A stretch of DNA of 64,000 nt from Patescibacteria group bacterium (GCA_038065615.1 JBBTQQ010000008.1:10658-74657), one strand, 5' to 3'. Shown: positions 1,937-34,441, numbered from the stretch's first letter. Made by a program: numbers and translations. Notes: generated by a model from the sequence alone, not told the origin.

Positions 1937-3070
1937 ATGTCAGATTCAATAGAACAAGAGAAAAAAGCAATATCTGGGATTTTGGATAAAATCATAGACA
2001 GCAAGCAAACTGTCTCTTTACAGAATTTTGAGCCCGCTTTAGTAGCTGGTAAGATATTAAGCTTGTTAAAAGAAAGAGATCGCCAGATCCTTGCAAAGCG
2101 TTTTGGTTTGCTTGGCTTTCCAGCAAAAACCCTTGAGGCAATAGGTAAGGAACACAATTTAACCAGAGAACGAGTTAGACAGATTGAAAAGGATTCAATC
2201 AAGTTTTTGCGTTCTAAACTAGATCAAGAACAGCTTGCAGAATCTGTCAAAGTTTTAGCGCATATTATTCACGATTCTGGAAGAATCATTAAAGAACTTG
2301 AGTTAATCAAGCTTTTGAGTTTTGAGTCTACTGAAGCAGAAAAGCGCTCTGTTTTGTTTTTGTTACATATTGCAGAAGAATTGTTAGAAGTTAAGGAATC
2401 TGAGTTGTATCATGCAGCTTGGGCTTCAGTTACATACAATCACGAGTTCTTTGAAAATATAATCAAGACTGCACGTGAAATACTAACAGCAGAAGGTAAA
2501 CCAATAACTGAATTAAACCTGATTGAAAAACTACAGCAAAGCGAATTCTACAAGAATAACCAGAAAGATTTAAACGAAAAGATTCTAAAGACATACATTG
2601 AGATTAGCAAAGAGATTGCTAGAAATCCTTTTGGTGAATATGGTTTGAAAGATTGGCGTGAGATTAAACCAAAAGACGTTGGTGACAAAGCATACATTGT
2701 TTTAAAGCATCATGCAAAACCATCCCACTATTCTGAAATTACAGAAATGATCAACAAGCATGGTTTTGACAAGAGAACCGCAAACAAAGAAAGCGTACAC
2801 AATGAACTAATCAAAGACGGACGTTTTGTTTTAGTTGGTCGTGGTATTTATGCCTTGACTGAATGGGGCTACAAGAAAGGCGTTGTTGCTGATGTCATTA
2901 TTGAAATACTAGAAAGATCAAACCAACCACTAAGTAGAGATGAGATCATTTCAGAAGTTATGAAAAAGCGTATGGTTAAAAGAAATACTGTTTTAGTTGC
3001 TCTTTCAAACAAGAGTCTTTTCAACAAAGTTCAAAGAAATAAGTACGAGTTAGTAACTAGAGCAAAATAA
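1937..3070 (+). CDS. Putative transcription factor: sigma-70 region-4-like HTH plus two HARE-HTH-like winged-helix repeats
   Basis: LTRERVRQIEKDSIKFLR matches the sigma-70 region 4 signature. Two C-terminal repeats (HYSEITEMINKHGF... and LSRDEIISEVMKK...) resemble HARE-HTH / RpoE-delta N-terminal domains. Confidence 0.5.
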   Translation: MSDSIEQEKKAISGILDKIIDSKQTVSLQNFEPALVAGKILSLLKERDRQILAKRFGLLGFPAKTLEAIGKEHNLTRERVRQIEKDSIKFLRSKLDQEQLAESVKVLAHIIHDSGRIIKELELIKLLSFESTEAEKRSVLFLLHIAEELLEVKESELYHAAWASVTYNHEFFENIIKTAREILTAEGKPITELNLIEKLQQSEFYKNNQKDLNEKILKTYIEISKEIARNPFGEYGLKDWREIKPKDVGDKAYIVLKHHAKPSHYSEITEMINKHGFDKRTANKESVHNELIKDGRFVLVGRGIYALTEWGYKKGVVADVIIEILERSNQPLSRDEIISEVMKKRMVKRNTVLVALSNKSLFNKVQRNKYELVTRAK

Positions 3071-7234: not shown

Positions 7235-7284
7235 TTGATGTTAGTCAGTCATGCAGGAGGATCACCATTCCACCGAGGAAGACC

Positions 7285-7557
7285 ATGCGACAAATCGATT
7301 TGTGGGGCCTGCTTCATGAAGCTGCCATCGCTGACAGCCCTGCTGAGGCTCAAGAGTTCCGCGAGAAGTTCTTGAAAGCCATCAGCGCCCTGGATAGCTG
7401 GACCCAGTGCATCATGCTTGACCTGTACGACGAGGTGTTGCGTCGGTGTCCAGAGGAGCTTCCAAGGCAGATGATCTTCTACATGTACTGCGGCAGTAGC
7501 CGAGTTGGCACGACAGAGCATGGACTCGGCGTTCTTGAGCCCGAGGTGCTGCTCTAG
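7285..7557 (+). CDS. Hypothetical 90-aa protein encoded in a high-GC island (anomalous composition)
   Basis: ORF with GC-rich codons (CTG, GCC, CGC) in an island of about 57% GC within a roughly 35% GC context. GAGGAAG lies 3 nt before the ATG and AGGAGG lies 24 nt upstream. In-frame ATT/ATC are possible alternative starts at 7267/7261. The antisense ORF 7249-7641 looks like a by-product. Confidence 0.4.
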   Translation: MRQIDLWGLLHEAAIADSPAEAQEFREKFLKAISALDSWTQCIMLDLYDEVLRRCPEELPRQMIFYMYCGSSRVGTTEHGLGVLEPEVLL

Positions 7558-7603
7558 TTGGACAACGAGGCGTCCGTGTAGCGCTGTTCTCGCGACAACA
7601 AAA

Positions 7604-7635
7604 CAGGGGCGATCTCTTTGCTGAGACCGCCCCTG
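7604..7635 (-). terminator. GC-rich hairpin terminator (CAGGGGCG/CGCCCCTG); on minus strand followed by TTTTGTTGTC, directly 3' of hppA
   Basis: Perfect 8-bp GC stem, then a T-run on the minus strand. May also terminate the + strand small ORF. Confidence 0.6.
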
Positions 7636-7655
7636 TGTCACGTTTGGGTATATCT

Positions 7656-9644
7656 TTAGTGTTTAATGAACTTAACCATCAACAACGCGACAATGTTAAT
7701 AATTTTAATCATTGGGTTAATTGCAGGTCCTGCGGTATCTTTGTATGGATCACCAACAGTGTCTCCTGTAACTGCTGCTTGATGAGCAAAGGATTTCTTT
7801 CCACCATGATGACCTTCCTCAATGTATTTCTTTGCATTGTCCCATGCAGCACCACCGGTTGTCATGGATATACCAACAAACAAACCAGTGACTATGGAAC
7901 CAACAATCAAACCGCCAAGTGCTTTAGCACCAAGAGTTAATCCCACAACGATTGGAACAACTACTGGGATGAGGGCTGGAATAATCATTTCTTTAATCGC
8001 GGCTTTAGTTACGATATCAACAGCCTTTGTGTAGTCTGGTTTTGCTGTTCCTTCCATAATCCCTTTAATCTCTCTAAACTGTCTTCTAACTTCTTCTACA
8101 ACAGCATGTGCTGCTTTTCCAACAGCTTGCATTGCAATGGAAGCAAAGAGGTAAGGCAACAAACCTCCAATGAACAAACCAACTAAAACTTTTGGATCTG
8201 AAATATCAAAGCCAGTATTAATTCCTCTATTTGTTAATTCTTGTGAGAATGAAGCAAACAGGATGATCGCAGCAAGTCCAGCTGATGCGATTGCATAACC
8301 TTTTGTTACTGCTTTTGTTGTGTTTCCAACAGCATCTAAAGGATCAGTAATATCTCTTACTTCTTGAGGCATACCAGCCATTTCAGCAATACCACCAGCA
8401 TTGTCAGTTATTGGTCCAAACGCATCAATTGCAACAACAATTCCTGTCAGAGACAACATGCTCATGACAGCCAAAGCAACACCGTAAAGTCCTGCTTGAT
8501 TGTGTGACACCAAAATTGCAGCAACAATTGCTAACACAGGTAGCGCTGTTGATTGCATTGAAACAGCAAGACCTGTAATGATATTTGTTCCGTGTCCAGT
8601 TGTTGAAGCTTGCGCAATATCTCGCACAGGTTTAAAGCTTTTTGATGTGTAGTACTCTGTGATTAAAACAATAGCCGCGGTTACTACAAGACCCATTAAA
8701 GCAGAGGTGTAAAGCTGCCAGAAAGTAAACTGTGTTTGAGCTGCCATCATGCTTTGAGTAATAGGGTAGAAAGCAACCGCAGAAAGAAGTCCTGAAACAA
8801 TAAGGCCTTTGTAAAGCGCGCCCATAATACTTTTTTTAGAGCCAAGTCTAACAAAAAATGTTCCAATAATTGTTGTAATGATTGAAGCTGCACCTAGGAT
8901 TAAAGGATAGGTAATTGCTGCTTCGAAATCTTTGAAAGTTAAAGAACCAAGAAGCATAACTGCGATTGCTGAAACAACGTATGTTTCAAACAAATCTGCT
9001 GCCATACCCGCATCATCACCAACATTGTCACCAACATTGTCTGCAATGACTGCTGGGTTTCTTGGATCATCTTCTGGAATACCGCTTTCTAGTTTACCAA
9101 CTAAGTCAGCACCAACATCAGCACCTTTTGTAAAGATTCCACCACCGAGTCTTGCAAATACAGAAATTAAGGAAGCTCCGAAACCAAGACCAATTAAAGC
9201 GTTTAAGTCTTTGTTAAAAGCGTAGAATCCTGCGACAGAAAGAAGTCCAAGACCTACTACAAACAAACCTGTTACTGTTCCGCCTTGAAAAGCAACAGAA
9301 AGAGCATGTCCTAAACCTTTCCTTGCAGCCTCAGCTGTTCTGACATTTGCTCTAACAGCAACATTCATTCCAATGTAACCTGCTAGTGCTGAAGCAACTG
9401 CTCCAATCAAAAAACCGACGATTGTGCCGGTGCTAAAATGAAAGACCCACATTAAAATTGCTAAAACAAGCGCAACGCCTGCAACAGTCTTGTACTGTCT
9501 GTTTAAGTACGCGTTTGCCCCCTGTTGTATAGCTTGCGCTATTTCCCTCATTTTCTCATTACCTTGCTCTTTCTTCAAAACATTGAAGATGAGCGCTGTA
9601 CCGTAAATTAAAGAAAGCACAGCTGCTATGATCGGAAAGGTCAT
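7656..9644 (-). CDS. hppA: Membrane-bound proton/sodium-translocating pyrophosphatase (H+-PPase)
   Basis: 662-aa polytopic protein with the diagnostic DNVGDNVGD motif and HppA-like overall sequence. Confidence 0.9.
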
Positions 9645-9743
9645 ATCTTTGTTCTTTTTCTTAATTAAAAGGTTAATTTTACTTGCTTATTATGCCAAAA
9701 AAGCCCAGGTTTTGCAATACCTTAAGGCTTTGACTGTCAACAC

Positions 9744-9911
9744 TATTTACTTATGTCTTGATCTTTGAAAAATGATGGTAAAACCCCATATTCCAATGAG
9801 CAAGTGTATCAGGAGGATATATGCCGGTAGATCAAAGTATTCCTTGAAGGCAAACCCTAAAACACCGACTAAAATACCTCCAGTAGCACAAACTACAGCG
9901 TATAGTTTCAT
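9744..9911 (-). CDS. Small hydrophobic protein (55 aa), candidate
   Basis: ATG overlaps the stop of the upstream small ORF (TAATG coupling). Two predicted TM segments. Lies upstream of hppA on the same strand. Confidence 0.3.
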
Positions 9912-10099
9912 TATTTTTTAATTAGGTTATAGAAAGACTCAAGACGAGAATCTGTTCCACAATAGAAGATGCGTTCTGTTAGATTAACGCAATATTGCGG
10001 ATTTTTATGGATATAGTTGTACTTTGGCAGGAACCAGTATAGAAATACTGCTGCTGCAAAGAACAAACCATATAGCACAAACTTTATAATTGATAGCAT
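9911..10099 (-). CDS. Small hydrophobic protein (62 aa), candidate
   Basis: Internal Met of a longer spurious ORF. The longer form would overlap tRNA-Gln on the opposite strand, so the start must be at or below 10099. TM N-terminus, two Cys. Confidence 0.3.
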   Translation of the reverse strand: MLSIIKFVLYGLFFAAAVFLYWFLPKYNYIHKNPQYCVNLTERIFYCGTDSRLESFYNLIKK

Positions 10100-31585: not shown

Positions 31586-32818
31586 TTAATGCTTTTTGTT
31601 CAAGGATTCAACTCTACGAAGTTCTTTGATTATTGGTCCGCTTACTTTAACAAACTCATCAAGATCAGATTTCTTGGTAGATCTTCCAAGAGTAATACGT
31701 ACACTTGCCTTAGCGTCATACTTGTCCAAACCAATTGCTAAGAGAACATGTGACGGATCCAGGCTGGTTGAGGCACAAGCAGAGCCAGTTGAAACAGCAA
31801 ACCCTTGAGCATCAAGATACAAAAGCAACGCTTCTCCGTCTATACCAACAAAAGAAAAATTAATATTGTTAGGTAAGCGTAAAATATTTTTCTCTGAATC
31901 TTTTTCAACAGAAGGACCATTTAATATTGAACCTGGAATTGTTTTTTGAATCCTTGAGATCAAATAGTTTCTTAAAGTCCTTAATCTCTTGTTTTCTGAC
32001 TTTTTTAAACGTTCAGCAATCTCTAATGCTTTTGCAAAACCAATAATCCCGGAAGTATTTTCTGTTCCTGAACGCAAACCTCTTTCCTGTCCCCCGCCAT
32101 AGATCAAAGGTTTTAATTTAACCCCGTTTCTTACATACAACAAACCAACTTGTTTTGGTCCATAAATCTTGCTTGCATTTAAAGTCATTAAATCAACACC
32201 AAGCTTGTTAACATTCAAATCCAAAGCACCAACTGCTTGGCACGCATCAGTGTGCGAAAGAATCTTTTGTTTCCTATTCAAATTTGCTTTTCTAATTACC
32301 TTAGCTAACTCGTTTATTGGTTGAACTGTTCCAATCTCGTTATTTGCATAAATCACACTTACTAAAACAGTGTTCTTTTTAATTGCTTTAGCAAGCTCTT
32401 TTGAATTAACAAAACCTTGATTATTAACTTTGAGTATTGTTAATTCAACGCCCTCACTTTTTAAAGCTTTTGCGCTTTCTAAAACAGCATGATGTTCAAT
32501 AGCAGAAACTATGATGTGTGGTTTTTTGAATCCAGAAGAAATTGCTTGTCTTACAACCCCAAACAAAGCAAGGTTAACGGATTCAGTTCCCCCACCTGTG
32601 AATATTATCTCACTCTCTCTTGCTCCAATTATGTCTGCTATTGTTTTCCTTGCTGTATCAATATCAAATTTAGCTTCCATTCCAAGCTCATAAATACTAG
32701 AAGCATTCCCAAACTTTTCTGATAAATATGGTTGCATAGCACGAACAACCTCCTGATCTAGAGGTGTTGTTGCGGCATGGTCTAGATATATTAATTTTCT
32801 CTTTTTATTCCCTAACAT
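31586..32818 (-). CDS. iscS: Cysteine desulfurase (IscS/NifS family)
   Basis: Class V aminotransferase fold with a PLP-lysine region (LNASKIYGPK) and the SGSACAS active-site cysteine loop. Confidence 0.9.
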   Translation of the reverse strand: MLGNKKRKLIYLDHAATTPLDQEVVRAMQPYLSEKFGNASSIYELGMEAKFDIDTARKTIADIIGARESEIIFTGGGTESVNLALFGVVRQAISSGFKKPHIIVSAIEHHAVLESAKALKSEGVELTILKVNNQGFVNSKELAKAIKKNTVLVSVIYANNEIGTVQPINELAKVIRKANLNRKQKILSHTDACQAVGALDLNVNKLGVDLMTLNASKIYGPKQVGLLYVRNGVKLKPLIYGGGQERGLRSGTENTSGIIGFAKALEIAERLKKSENKRLRTLRNYLISRIQKTIPGSILNGPSVEKDSEKNILRLPNNINFSFVGIDGEALLLYLDAQGFAVSTGSACASTSLDPSHVLLAIGLDKYDAKASVRITLGRSTKKSDLDEFVKVSGPIIKELRRVESLNKKH

Positions 32819-32869
32819 ACAGCAAATTATCTCATATTTGACCTATTTCTTCAATGTTCTAAAATTAAG

Positions 32870-33130
32870 TTGTTGACTAGCTCAGTCCCGCCGGAGGGTG
32901 GGCTGATCAACCAGGGCAAAGCTTGCCCAGGTATCTCGCATGAACTCTTATGCAAACTGGGTAGGGAGCCAATCCATCCATCCTGCTTGCCTACACAGGA
33001 GATATCTTAAGAGCGGAGTGTGCCCAGAGAAATTGCGAGGAGTGAAAAGGATGGGGATGGGGCCAGAAGGCCTCTCGGGGGTTGTGTACGCCTTTGTTGG
33101 CCTCTACACAACCCTCTTCCCAATTGCTTG
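32870..33130. ncRNA. GC-rich, highly self-complementary intergenic element (candidate structured RNA or leader); class unidentified
   Basis: About 55% GC in a 35% GC context. Stems seen: CCAGGGCAA-agc-TTGCCCAGG (32911-32931), GGCC-agaa-GGCC (33061-33072), GGGTTGTGTA...TACACAACCC (33078-33114). Checked by eye for RNase P, tmRNA, SRP and 5S motifs and found no match. Confidence 0.35.
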
Positions 33131-33163
33131 AATGCTTTGATTACTGTAATATCTTAAGTACAT

Positions 33164-34441
33164 ATGCAATACGCATTCATCTTAGGGAGGGTGTATACAT
33201 TATCTATTGCTGAACTTCTAGTTGTCCTTCAAGACGAGCTTGTTGATCATGATGTGCCCTTTAAAATCATAGCCGCTTCCATTGAAGCGTTAATCATTGA
33301 AACTGAAAAACAAATAGATCATGAAAAACTCCAGCGTCGTTTAGGTGGAGTCATTAAAATTATAAAAATAGTTGATTCCGTTAAAAAGCGTCCTCAAGAT
33401 TCCATAAACTTTGCGCTTCAAAATTACTTTAAACCAAGCAAATTAAAAAAAGACTTCCTTAAAGAATACTCTGGAAAAAAACAATTCGGAGTAAGCGTGT
33501 ACTTGCTTGATCCAACAATCAAAGGTTTTGGGGAACCAAAACGCCTTGGTATGTTCATCAAGAAAGGATTACAAGAGGAAGGCGCTTCAATTAGAGTTTG
33601 CTTGCCTGATTACAATTCCCTTTCTCTTGCCTCTGTTGTTGTTACAAAAAACCTCTTACTACAAAAAGGCGCTGAGATTGTTGTAATAGCTGGAATTGAT
33701 CGAGTCTATGTTGGTAAAACTTTGATTGTTCAAGACTTTGAAGACTATGGTAGACGCGACTATCAACGACCAATACGAGATGACAAACAAGGGATGATTC
33801 CACCAAAGGTTGCTCAGATAATGATCAACTTCGCGCGTTTGCCAAAAAACGCAATTGTTTTAGATCCTTTTTGTGGTATTGGAACAATCATTCAAGAAGC
33901 AATTCTTCTGGGTTACAAAGGATATGGATCTGATATTGCTAAGTTTGCAATATCTGGGAGTGAGAAAAACCTTGAATGGTTTAGAAACAGGTACAAAATT
34001 CCTCCTGGTAAATACAAACTTGAGGTCGCAGATGTAGCTGATGTAGCCACTACTTTCAAAGGAGAAAAGATCGCAGGAATTGTAACTGAGGGATATTTGG
34101 GACCAATGTATGGCTCTTTCCCTAAAGACTCAGATATTCAAAAGAACTTCGAAGACCTTAAAAAACTATGGATATCTGCTTTCAAAGCTTTAAAGAACCT
34201 CCTTCCTAAAGGGTCCAGGGTTGTCATCTGTCTTCCTTGCTACAGAAAAGACGCTGACTCATATATCCCCTTTCCAAGCGTTGACTTCATCACTGATTTA
34301 GGCTACAATATTGAAGATCTATTTCCTCCTACTGCTAAAAAATTGATGCCGTTCTTAAAGCTTACAGAACGAAACTCAATGATCTATGATCGTAAAGATC
34401 AGGTTGTAGCAAGAGAAATTATCACGTTCATTAATAATTAA
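33164..34441 (+). CDS. SAM-dependent RNA (guanine-N2) methyltransferase, Trm11/UPF0020-like
   Basis: LDPFCGIGTIIQEAILLGYKGYGSDI motif I region and the overall architecture of Trm11/RlmL-type N2-G methyltransferases. The ATG appears to sit directly at the promoter -10 (possibly leaderless). Confidence 0.6.
   Translation: MQYAFILGRVYTLSIAELLVVLQDELVDHDVPFKIIAASIEALIIETEKQIDHEKLQRRLGGVIKIIKIVDSVKKRPQDSINFALQNYFKPSKLKKDFLKEYSGKKQFGVSVYLLDPTIKGFGEPKRLGMFIKKGLQEEGASIRVCLPDYNSLSLASVVVTKNLLLQKGAEIVVIAGIDRVYVGKTLIVQDFEDYGRRDYQRPIRDDKQGMIPPKVAQIMINFARLPKNAIVLDPFCGIGTIIQEAILLGYKGYGSDIAKFAISGSEKNLEWFRNRYKIPPGKYKLEVADVADVATTFKGEKIAGIVTEGYLGPMYGSFPKDSDIQKNFEDLKKLWISAFKALKNLLPKGSRVVICLPCYRKDADSYIPFPSVDFITDLGYNIEDLFPPTAKKLMPFLKLTERNSMIYDRKDQVVAREIITFINN

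Follow-up and report, generated by a model that had tools for sequence, protein, structure and literature searches.

The spacer of 345 nucleotides (nt) considered here separates two divergent genes in a Candidatus Doudnabacteria genome (Patescibacteria, or candidate phyla radiation, CPR), within a stretch of 64 kb that we refer to as the window, and holds what is probably an independently transcribed, structured RNA that belongs to no described family. The RNA and its neighbours are arranged as follows.

31586-32818, minus strand: cysteine desulfurase gene (iscS; Aminotran_5), followed in the same operon by NifU and ferredoxin genes
32872-33125, plus strand: the whole RNA, about 250 nt, with a guanine plus cytosine content (GC) of 0.53; both ends predicted
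33164-34441, plus strand: methyltransferase gene, 425 aa, of the UPF0020/N6_N4_Mtase type and Trm11-like, with rpmA 10 nt further on

Both flanking genes are those named by a first-pass annotation of this DNA, iscS on the minus strand and the methyltransferase on the plus strand. The methyltransferase reading frame shares 96% identity with a protein from 'Candidatus Doudnabacteria bacterium Gr01-1014_77', and its homologues carry the JGI label 'tRNA G10 N-methylase Trm11', while an IscS identical to that of the window is also encoded on contigs up to 325 kb long. Between the iscS operon on one side and the methyltransferase-rpmA pair on the other, the spacer forms an island (32872-33125) with a GC of 0.55 against about 0.37. 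The first-pass annotation had drawn attention to this island, and 150-nt segments across 32875-33099 confirm it, with values of 0.55 and 0.54 against 0.30-0.42 in the flanks. A GC of at least 0.52, measured in 120-nt segments, is reached in only three stretches of the 64 kb, namely the RNA island, a tRNA cluster and positions 7241-7661.

Orthologous spacers were collected with the methyltransferase as an anchor, from 80 Doudnabacteria loci in GTDB genomes, with further loci added through exact-protein look-ups and one metagenome DNA-pattern scan, giving 9 distinct variants of the RNA (the window, L001, L002, L003, L143, L010/L180, L135/L145/L146, L110/L147 and L178/L179). Comparison of these spacers, which the first-pass annotation had proposed as a check, establishes a conserved fold that includes a long-range pseudoknot, and the strong covariation across the variants bears out the suggestion that the spacer encodes a structured RNA. 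Counted on alignments fitted to the covariance model, the final structure is paired in 97.0% of 693 cells (77 pairs in 9 sequences), and both partners have changed in 18 of the 77 pairs (43 cells). In 500 column shuffles neither the observed pairing nor the compensatory-pair count nor the covariation score was attained, and control structures slid by 1-3 columns were 40-47% paired with 0-5 compensatory pairs. RNAalifold found 11 compensatory pairs with as few as 5 sequences; with 7 sequences it placed a long-range helix where central local hairpins had been, and a further long-range pairing with four compensatory pairs was added to its fold as a pseudoknot. The first RNAalifold structure, with the central local hairpins, was rejected, as it is outscored by the fold with the long-range helix P2 and the pseudoknot both in compensatory pairs (18 vs 12) and in cells paired (97.0% vs 94.8%; 9 vs 7 sequences). 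Thermodynamically, the fold of the plus strand has an energy of -106.5 kcal/mol (z = -2.84), which none of 200 dinucleotide shuffles equals, and the minus strand reaches z = -1.74, with 10 of 200 as good. A seed alignment and a covariance model, R2, were built for the family in this analysis, and on the window both R2 and the model R1 match 32866-33140, with 290 and 299 bits, respectively. The parts of the fold, in the order in which they would be transcribed, are these.

32872-32911, plus strand: P1, 15-bp hairpin with a GCCGGA loop, the most conserved part
32912-32937, plus strand: 5' strand of P2 (CAGGGC, GCUU, AGGUAUCUC), partner of 32999-33027
32938-32953, plus strand: P3, short hairpin in the three-way junction, with compensatory columns 77/86 and 76/87 and an invariant G-U pair at 78/85
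32956-32998, plus strand: P4/P5 hairpin, with a variable stem and a conserved apical loop that bears the 5' strand of the pseudoknot
32977-32984, plus strand: pseudoknot 5' strand UCCAUCCU, in the P5 loop, partner of 33048-33055
32999-33027, plus strand: 3' strand of P2 (GAGAUAUCU, GAGC, GCCCAG), partner of 32912-32937
33028-33047, plus strand: linker, purine-rich and variable, ending in a conserved run of four A
33048-33055, plus strand: pseudoknot 3' strand AGGAUGGG, partner of 32977-32984
33060-33073, plus strand: P6 hairpin, its GGCC-AGAA-GGC core invariant in 9 of 9 variants
33077-33116, plus strand: P7, 15-bp terminal hairpin, then UCUUCCCAAUU; this 3' end resembles a terminator, but its U tract is weak

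P1 is paired in 99.3% of its cells, with 11 of its 15 pairs invariant and one compensatory (C-G to U-A). P2 is a long interrupted helix of three segments; together with P3 and P4/P5 it makes up a three-way junction, which it closes. It is compensatory at columns 60/148 (U-G in 5, G-C in 4), 70/139 (U-A in 5, C-G in 4) and 49/163, and its distal pairing also appears when the window sequence is folded by itself for minimum free energy. The stem of P4/P5 differs in sequence from variant to variant, yet the hairpin always forms, with four compensatory pairs. The pseudoknot joins the P5 loop to a segment 70 nt downstream, and 4 of its 8 pairs are compensatory, so that it appears as CCAUCCU/AGGAUGG, CCGUCCU/AGGACGG or CCGCUCU/AGAGCGG. 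In the linker that precedes the 3' strand of the pseudoknot both sequence and length vary, and only A227-A230 of the spacer alignment are invariant. The closing pair of P6, at columns 200/213, covaries (A-U in 4, G-C in 3, G-U in 2), and P7 is paired in 98% of its cells and has three compensatory pairs.

The three stems quoted by the first-pass annotation are all present in the sequence, at 33061-33072, 33079-33114 and 32911-32932, and comparison separates them. The GGCC-AGAA-GGCC stem (33061-33072) is retained as P6, its core invariant and its flanking pair covarying, and the 10-bp helix GGGTTGTGTA/TACACAACCC, within 33079-33114, is upheld by 3 compensatory pairs. The local stem CCAGGGCAA/TTGCCCAGG (32911-32932) is not, as 0 of its 7 pairs covary and one is broken in variant L002. 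Its two strands pair instead with distal segments, and these distal pairs covary; indeed, the A at position 52 in L002 breaks the local hairpin and keeps the distal P2 pair, as A-U. The segment CAGGGC thus has two possible partners, a local GCCCAG (32925-32930) and a distal one (33022-33027). The local hairpin is still thermodynamically possible in every copy and its GCCC is invariant, and it is possible that it forms as a transient or alternative conformation.

Read as the plus strand the structure holds 66 G-U cells and 2 A-C cells, and the plus strand is therefore the RNA; pairing stands at 96.3% of cells on the plus strand vs 84.4% on the minus. To judge from its divergence the RNA is under purifying selection, since its identity to the window exceeds that of the four-fold degenerate sites of the adjoining methyltransferase gene in most comparisons (0.95 vs 0.84, 0.73 vs 0.58, 0.74 vs 0.53 and 0.65 vs 0.47). 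The exception is L002, with an RNA identity of 0.72 against 0.71 at four-fold sites. In that locus (2655-3000) the methyltransferase is 96% identical to that of the window, while the RNA is 72% identical to the RNA of the window and 84% to that of L003; because the RNA resembles that of L003 and the methyltransferase that of the window, this suggests a recombination in L002 whose breakpoint lay close to the RNA gene.

No reading frame is conserved among the variants on either strand, the stop-free stretches shifting in both frame and position, which is how we come to regard the region as non-coding. The copy in the window does contain, at 33036-33131, a Shine-Dalgarno-like AGGAG placed 8 nt ahead of an AUG and a hydrophobic frame of 26 codons (MGMGPEGLSGVVYAFVGLYTTLFPIA). 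It was considered as a gene and rejected, the AUG lying in a covarying strand of the pseudoknot and being ACG in L003; the frame is probably fortuitous because its AUG is not conserved.

Comparison with known RNAs returned no family for the element. Rfam 15 comprises 4227 models, membership of a family requiring a covariance-model score at or above its gathering score, and at these scores the whole window gave four tRNAs only, none of them in 32700-33300. Over 32700-33300, on both strands, relaxation to E<=10 gave noise alone, at 11-14 bits against thresholds of 45-55, the most diverged orthologue (L010) likewise gave no meaningful match at E<=10, and 20 related loci had no match at gathering scores. 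ARAGORN placed 4 tRNAs elsewhere in the window and neither a tRNA nor a transfer-messenger RNA (tmRNA) in the RNA region, and literature searches on structured RNAs in CPR bacteria and Doudnabacteria yielded nothing relevant, with no paper on CPR non-coding RNAs among those in the library searched. The RNA falls outside every Rfam family, and likewise outside tRNA, tmRNA, the 6S architecture and the antisense small RNAs. It is a solid candidate for a new RNA family, as the first-pass annotation had surmised.

Three promoters are predicted in the spacer.

32838-32865, plus strand: predicted RNA promoter, TTGACC (32838-32843), 16-nt spacer, TAAAAT (32860-32865), with 10 of 12 consensus matches
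32826-32854, minus strand: predicted iscS promoter, TTGAAG, 17-nt spacer, TG-GATAAT, found by consensus scan and conserved in the spacer alignment
33124-33129 and 33145-33152, plus strand: inferred methyltransferase promoter, TTGCTT, 17-nt spacer, extended -10 TG-TAATAT, ahead of the ATG at 33164

The hexamers of the putative RNA promoter are invariant in all copies shown, while the sequence between them varies, and the first helix, P1, starts 7 nt past the -10, giving a predicted start at about 32872. Those assigned to the methyltransferase are conserved as TTGCYY and TGTAAWAT, again with a variable spacer (7 copies shown), and this placement, in which the -10 ends 11 nt before the ATG, leaves a leader of 4-5 nt; the methyltransferase would thus have its own promoter and a near-leaderless mRNA. 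The iscS mRNA would be leaderless because the -10 of its predicted promoter ends 7 nt before the ATG at 32818. No Shine-Dalgarno sequence stands ahead of the methyltransferase ATG and none at iscS, and leaderless or near-leaderless mRNAs may be a general feature of expression in this lineage. The sequence that follows P7, UCUUCCCAAUU, is pyrimidine-rich, and P7 was not flagged in the terminator scan because it lacks a run of T. On the minus strand the scan found no promoter upstream of the RNA other than sites inside the methyltransferase gene.

The context of the RNA is constant in all copies, with iscS on the minus strand and the RNA, the methyltransferase and then rpmA on the plus strand. 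It was found solely at loci whose methyltransferase shares at least 86% identity with that of the window, the IscS of these loci being at least 72% identical, and is absent from the next relatives (methyltransferase 75-77%, IscS 59-68% identical). There its place is taken by a small gene of 100-148 aa on the minus strand, whose product combines a membrane helix at the N terminus with a conserved C-terminal domain containing the motif C.[IV]KG..S..K.YH.PG..Y....CF..E.EA..AGF.KS, and which carries the precomputed Pfam label PF27542 'ArfC'. Among the other Doudnabacteria loci fetched, the start of the methyltransferase typically lies within 0-120 nt of this divergent small gene, and there is no such RNA.

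L150 2698-3000 (minus strand), L148 353-682, L081 about 9700-9970 and L005 2656-2976, also most of L004-L080: small membrane-protein gene

The window holds no copy of the small gene, and its clade has lost or moved it. The possibility that the RNA is a decayed form of that gene was rejected, since there is no similarity in DNA or protein, and between the RNA spacer and the small-gene spacer none is detectable. Covariance models R1 and R2, run on about 620-650 kb of Doudnabacteria loci, found no homologue outside the clade and no second copy in the window, and neither did R1 with filters off in the GC-rich gaps of L082 and L004. A metagenome scan with the pattern AGGGTGGNCTGNTCAACCNGGNC gave 44 matches, of which 2 are true copies in the same context (L110 and L135); the remaining 42, which have no match to the model and lie amid what looks like GC-rich coding DNA, were set aside. 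Three pattern scans of viral contigs gave no true match, and blastn against phage and plasmid records gave none. Within the data searched, the RNA is confined to one genus-level clade of Doudnabacteria, which are tiny bacteria of groundwater.

In other Doudnabacteria the same interval holds strongly folding sequence of a different kind. At 9330-9710 of L082 lies a non-coding stretch that folds strongly on the plus strand (z = -7.1), with a canonical minus-strand terminator next to iscS; 2049-2653 of L004 has a GC of 0.57 against 0.44 for its locus and a folding z of -4.6; and 1862-2539 of L013 folds with z = -8.9 and has long inverted repeats. All three lie between iscS and the small gene, measure 350-680 nt, are unannotated and mutually unrelated, and match neither Rfam nor the RNA of the window. 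The interval between iscS and the methyltransferase may be a hotspot for structured elements.

We propose a model for this locus in which the element is genuine and encodes an RNA of some 250 nt, of an undescribed family, that is read from the plus strand as a transcription unit of its own. We consider this reading probable. Transcription of the RNA would begin at its own sigma-70-type promoter, back to back with that of iscS, and would end at the long GC-rich hairpin P7, just upstream of the promoter of the methyltransferase itself. The presence of a predicted promoter at the start of the structured region, and of a second one between the last hairpin and the ATG, argues for a separate RNA gene and not a leader or riboswitch; an independent small RNA, one of the options left by the first-pass annotation, is thereby favoured, and with it go the compensatory substitutions and the lack of a conserved reading frame. 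More tentatively, we suggest that what matters is the three-dimensional shape of the RNA, which would serve as a stable partner of, or scaffold for, a protein, a small ligand being a less likely partner. This suggestion follows from the pattern of conservation, which lies in the helices, hairpin loops and pseudoknot, while the only long unpaired segment, the linker, varies. Antisense pairing is probably not its mode. In 6 variants, the duplexes predicted between the RNA and the 5' end of iscS or of the methyltransferase had energies that fell inside the range given by shuffled targets or were worse, and the sites of interaction lack conservation. The linker, too, is variable, and antisense regulation of these two genes was rejected. 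The gene would have arisen or arrived in one genus-level clade of Doudnabacteria, at the site that the small membrane-protein gene occupies in sister lineages.

Several points weigh against this model. The promoters, the start and the 3' end of the RNA are predictions. P7 has no U run and was not flagged, so that read-through into the methyltransferase, and with it a role as leader, is possible. A two-state, switch-like RNA is conceivable because CAGGGC can also pair perfectly, as a local hairpin, with the invariant GCCC(AGG). The counting alignments lean towards the structure through their fitting to the covariance model, and all 9 copies are orthologues from one locus in a narrow clade; for both reasons the covariation is real but the cell counts overstate the independent events, which are few.

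The points on P7 and on CAGGGC bear chiefly on the possibility, which the first-pass annotation had raised in outline and which we think unlikely, that the element is a cis-acting leader of the methyltransferase-rpmA operon, a riboswitch or attenuator that senses a ligand or a protein (L27 or the methyltransferase) and uses P7 as a conditional terminator. The RNA is indeed on the same strand and P7 ends 47 nt before the ATG, the lack of a strong U tract makes read-through plausible, the choice of CAGGGC between local and distal GCCCAG resembles a two-state element, and the internal-loop GCCC is invariant though unpaired in the supported fold. Against this, the conserved, predicted extended -10 promoter (TTGCYY-17-TGTAAWAT) stands between P7 and the ATG and would give the mRNA a leader of 4-5 nt with no ribosome-binding site to mask, the local hairpin lacks covariation and is broken in L002 while the distal pairing covaries, and no Rfam riboswitch family matches. 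Furthermore, the association with the gene class does not recur: the element is known from a single orthologous locus, and at about 75 other Doudnabacteria loci the orthologous methyltransferase-rpmA operon lacks it. The opposite orientation, in which a minus-strand RNA would be the 5' leader or regulator of the iscS-nifU-ferredoxin operon, had also been raised, and we find it scarcely credible. Although the element lies directly upstream of iscS and its minus strand folds reasonably (z = -1.74), on that strand the 66 G-U cells become A-C mismatches and pairing drops from 96.3% to 84.4%, the predicted iscS promoter, with its -10 ending 7 nt from the ATG, separates the RNA from iscS, and the only minus-strand promoters that the scan places upstream of the RNA are inside the methyltransferase gene.

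In AT-rich genomes structured housekeeping RNAs are conspicuous as islands of high GC, as are the tRNAs of the window, and a strong predicted promoter and stable fold, together with the lack of 6S RNA, RNase P RNA, signal recognition particle (SRP) RNA and tmRNA elsewhere in the 64 kb, would suit a highly diverged housekeeping RNA of one of these four kinds that the Rfam models had missed. We nevertheless consider this very unlikely. Two diverged copies have no match even at E<=10, ARAGORN finds no tmRNA, the P4 motif of RNase P RNA and the domain IV motif of SRP RNA are absent from the sequence, and the 5' and 3' ends are unpaired, with no rod bearing a central bubble; paired ends are a feature of 6S RNA, of RNase P RNA with its P1 helix and of tmRNA with its acceptor stem. 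An essential RNA is moreover expected to be recognisable across a phylum, and close relatives lack a homologue both at the locus and in the 3-10 kb of flanking sequence fetched to either side. It is highly improbable, too, that the island is a non-functional remnant of foreign DNA of higher GC, such as a decayed gene or mobile-element scar, that replaced the small membrane-protein gene. Its restriction to one clade, exactly at the position of the small gene in relatives, would fit such an origin, as would the signs of recombination around the RNA in L002 and the second GC-rich island of the same genome (7241-7661), which looks acquired. The covariation already largely refutes it, however: 18 compensatory pairs and a strong excess of G-U over A-C are unexpected for decaying DNA, the identity is above that of neutral four-fold sites, the predicted promoter is invariant and no frame is conserved, and the element resembles no phage, plasmid or viral contig and has no DNA homology to the small-gene region.

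An independently transcribed RNA of this kind recalls several known systems, and the closest are the orphan structured RNA motifs that are found as GC-rich intergenic islands (the GC-rich intergenic region, or GC-IGR, approach), such as the raiA motif and the larger OLE RNA. Like these, the RNA is a GC-rich island in an AT-rich genome, has a covarying, pseudoknotted fold of several helices and a predicted promoter of its own, and sits among genes that assign it no function; unlike them, it has no match in Rfam 15, is far narrower in distribution (one genus-level clade, 9 sequences) and is smaller than OLE, GOLLD and ROOL. With riboswitch and attenuator leaders it shares its place upstream of a gene on the same strand, an aptamer-like pseudoknotted fold followed by a long hairpin, and a segment with two mutually exclusive pairings. 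It differs from them in the predicted promoter that stands before the gene, in lacking both a U tract and a ribosome-binding site that could be sequestered, in the methyltransferase orthologues that do without it and in matching no riboswitch model. Like 6S, SRP and RNase P RNA it is stable, strongly folded and, by prediction, promoter-driven, with a conserved shape and no single-stranded seed, but it has no match to them in sequence or structure, its ends are unpaired, it is not rod-like, and it is restricted to a lineage and not universal. Where 6S RNA has its long rod with a large central bubble, the supported fold has a 5' hairpin complete in itself, together with a three-way junction, a pseudoknot and a pair of hairpins near the 3' end, and RF00013 does not match. 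Finally, the omega RNA or HEARO of IscB, the bridge RNA of IS110 and the msr-msd of retrons are alike in size, in their pseudoknotted scaffold of several hairpins and in a patchy, lineage-specific distribution. Yet no gene for IscB, TnpB, an IS110 recombinase or a reverse transcriptase adjoins the RNA, its neighbours are iscS and a conserved housekeeping methyltransferase, it is single-copy in the window, and HEARO and other such Rfam families do not match.

The very small genomes of CPR bacteria can spare little space for DNA that is not essential, and a pseudoknotted RNA of about 250 nt that is under selection in such a genome, driven by what appears to be its own promoter, is likely to be useful. 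RNAs of comparable size and complexity have often proved to be ribozymes, riboswitches or subunits of ribonucleoproteins. A bolder possibility, which we rate as rather improbable, is that the RNA is the first example to be noticed of a new class of complex-folded, CPR-specific RNA with an activity of its own, or is one of several at a variable hotspot. If the former were true it could be, for example, a ribozyme, or a ribonucleoprotein subunit that acts with the Trm11-like methyltransferase or in Fe-S metabolism; if the latter, it would be only one of several unrelated structured RNAs in a variable hotspot next to iscS in Doudnabacteria. As a candidate family the RNA adds a new orphan to those catalogued and is relevant both to the cataloguing of structured RNAs and to CPR biology, while changing nothing already known; its value is limited by its very narrow distribution, by the uncultured state of the organism and by a gene context that offers no functional clue.

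The second GC-rich island of the window, at 7241-7661, reaches a GC of 0.59 against a genome mean of 0.37. It has no Rfam match, and it contains on the plus strand, at 7285-7557, an open reading frame of 90 aa (MRQIDLWGLLHEAAIADSPAEAQEFREKF...) without a Pfam match, with a hairpin downstream of it at about 7594-7637 (ACAGGGGCGATCTCTTTGCTGAGACCGCCCCTGT); this island looks like an acquired small gene.

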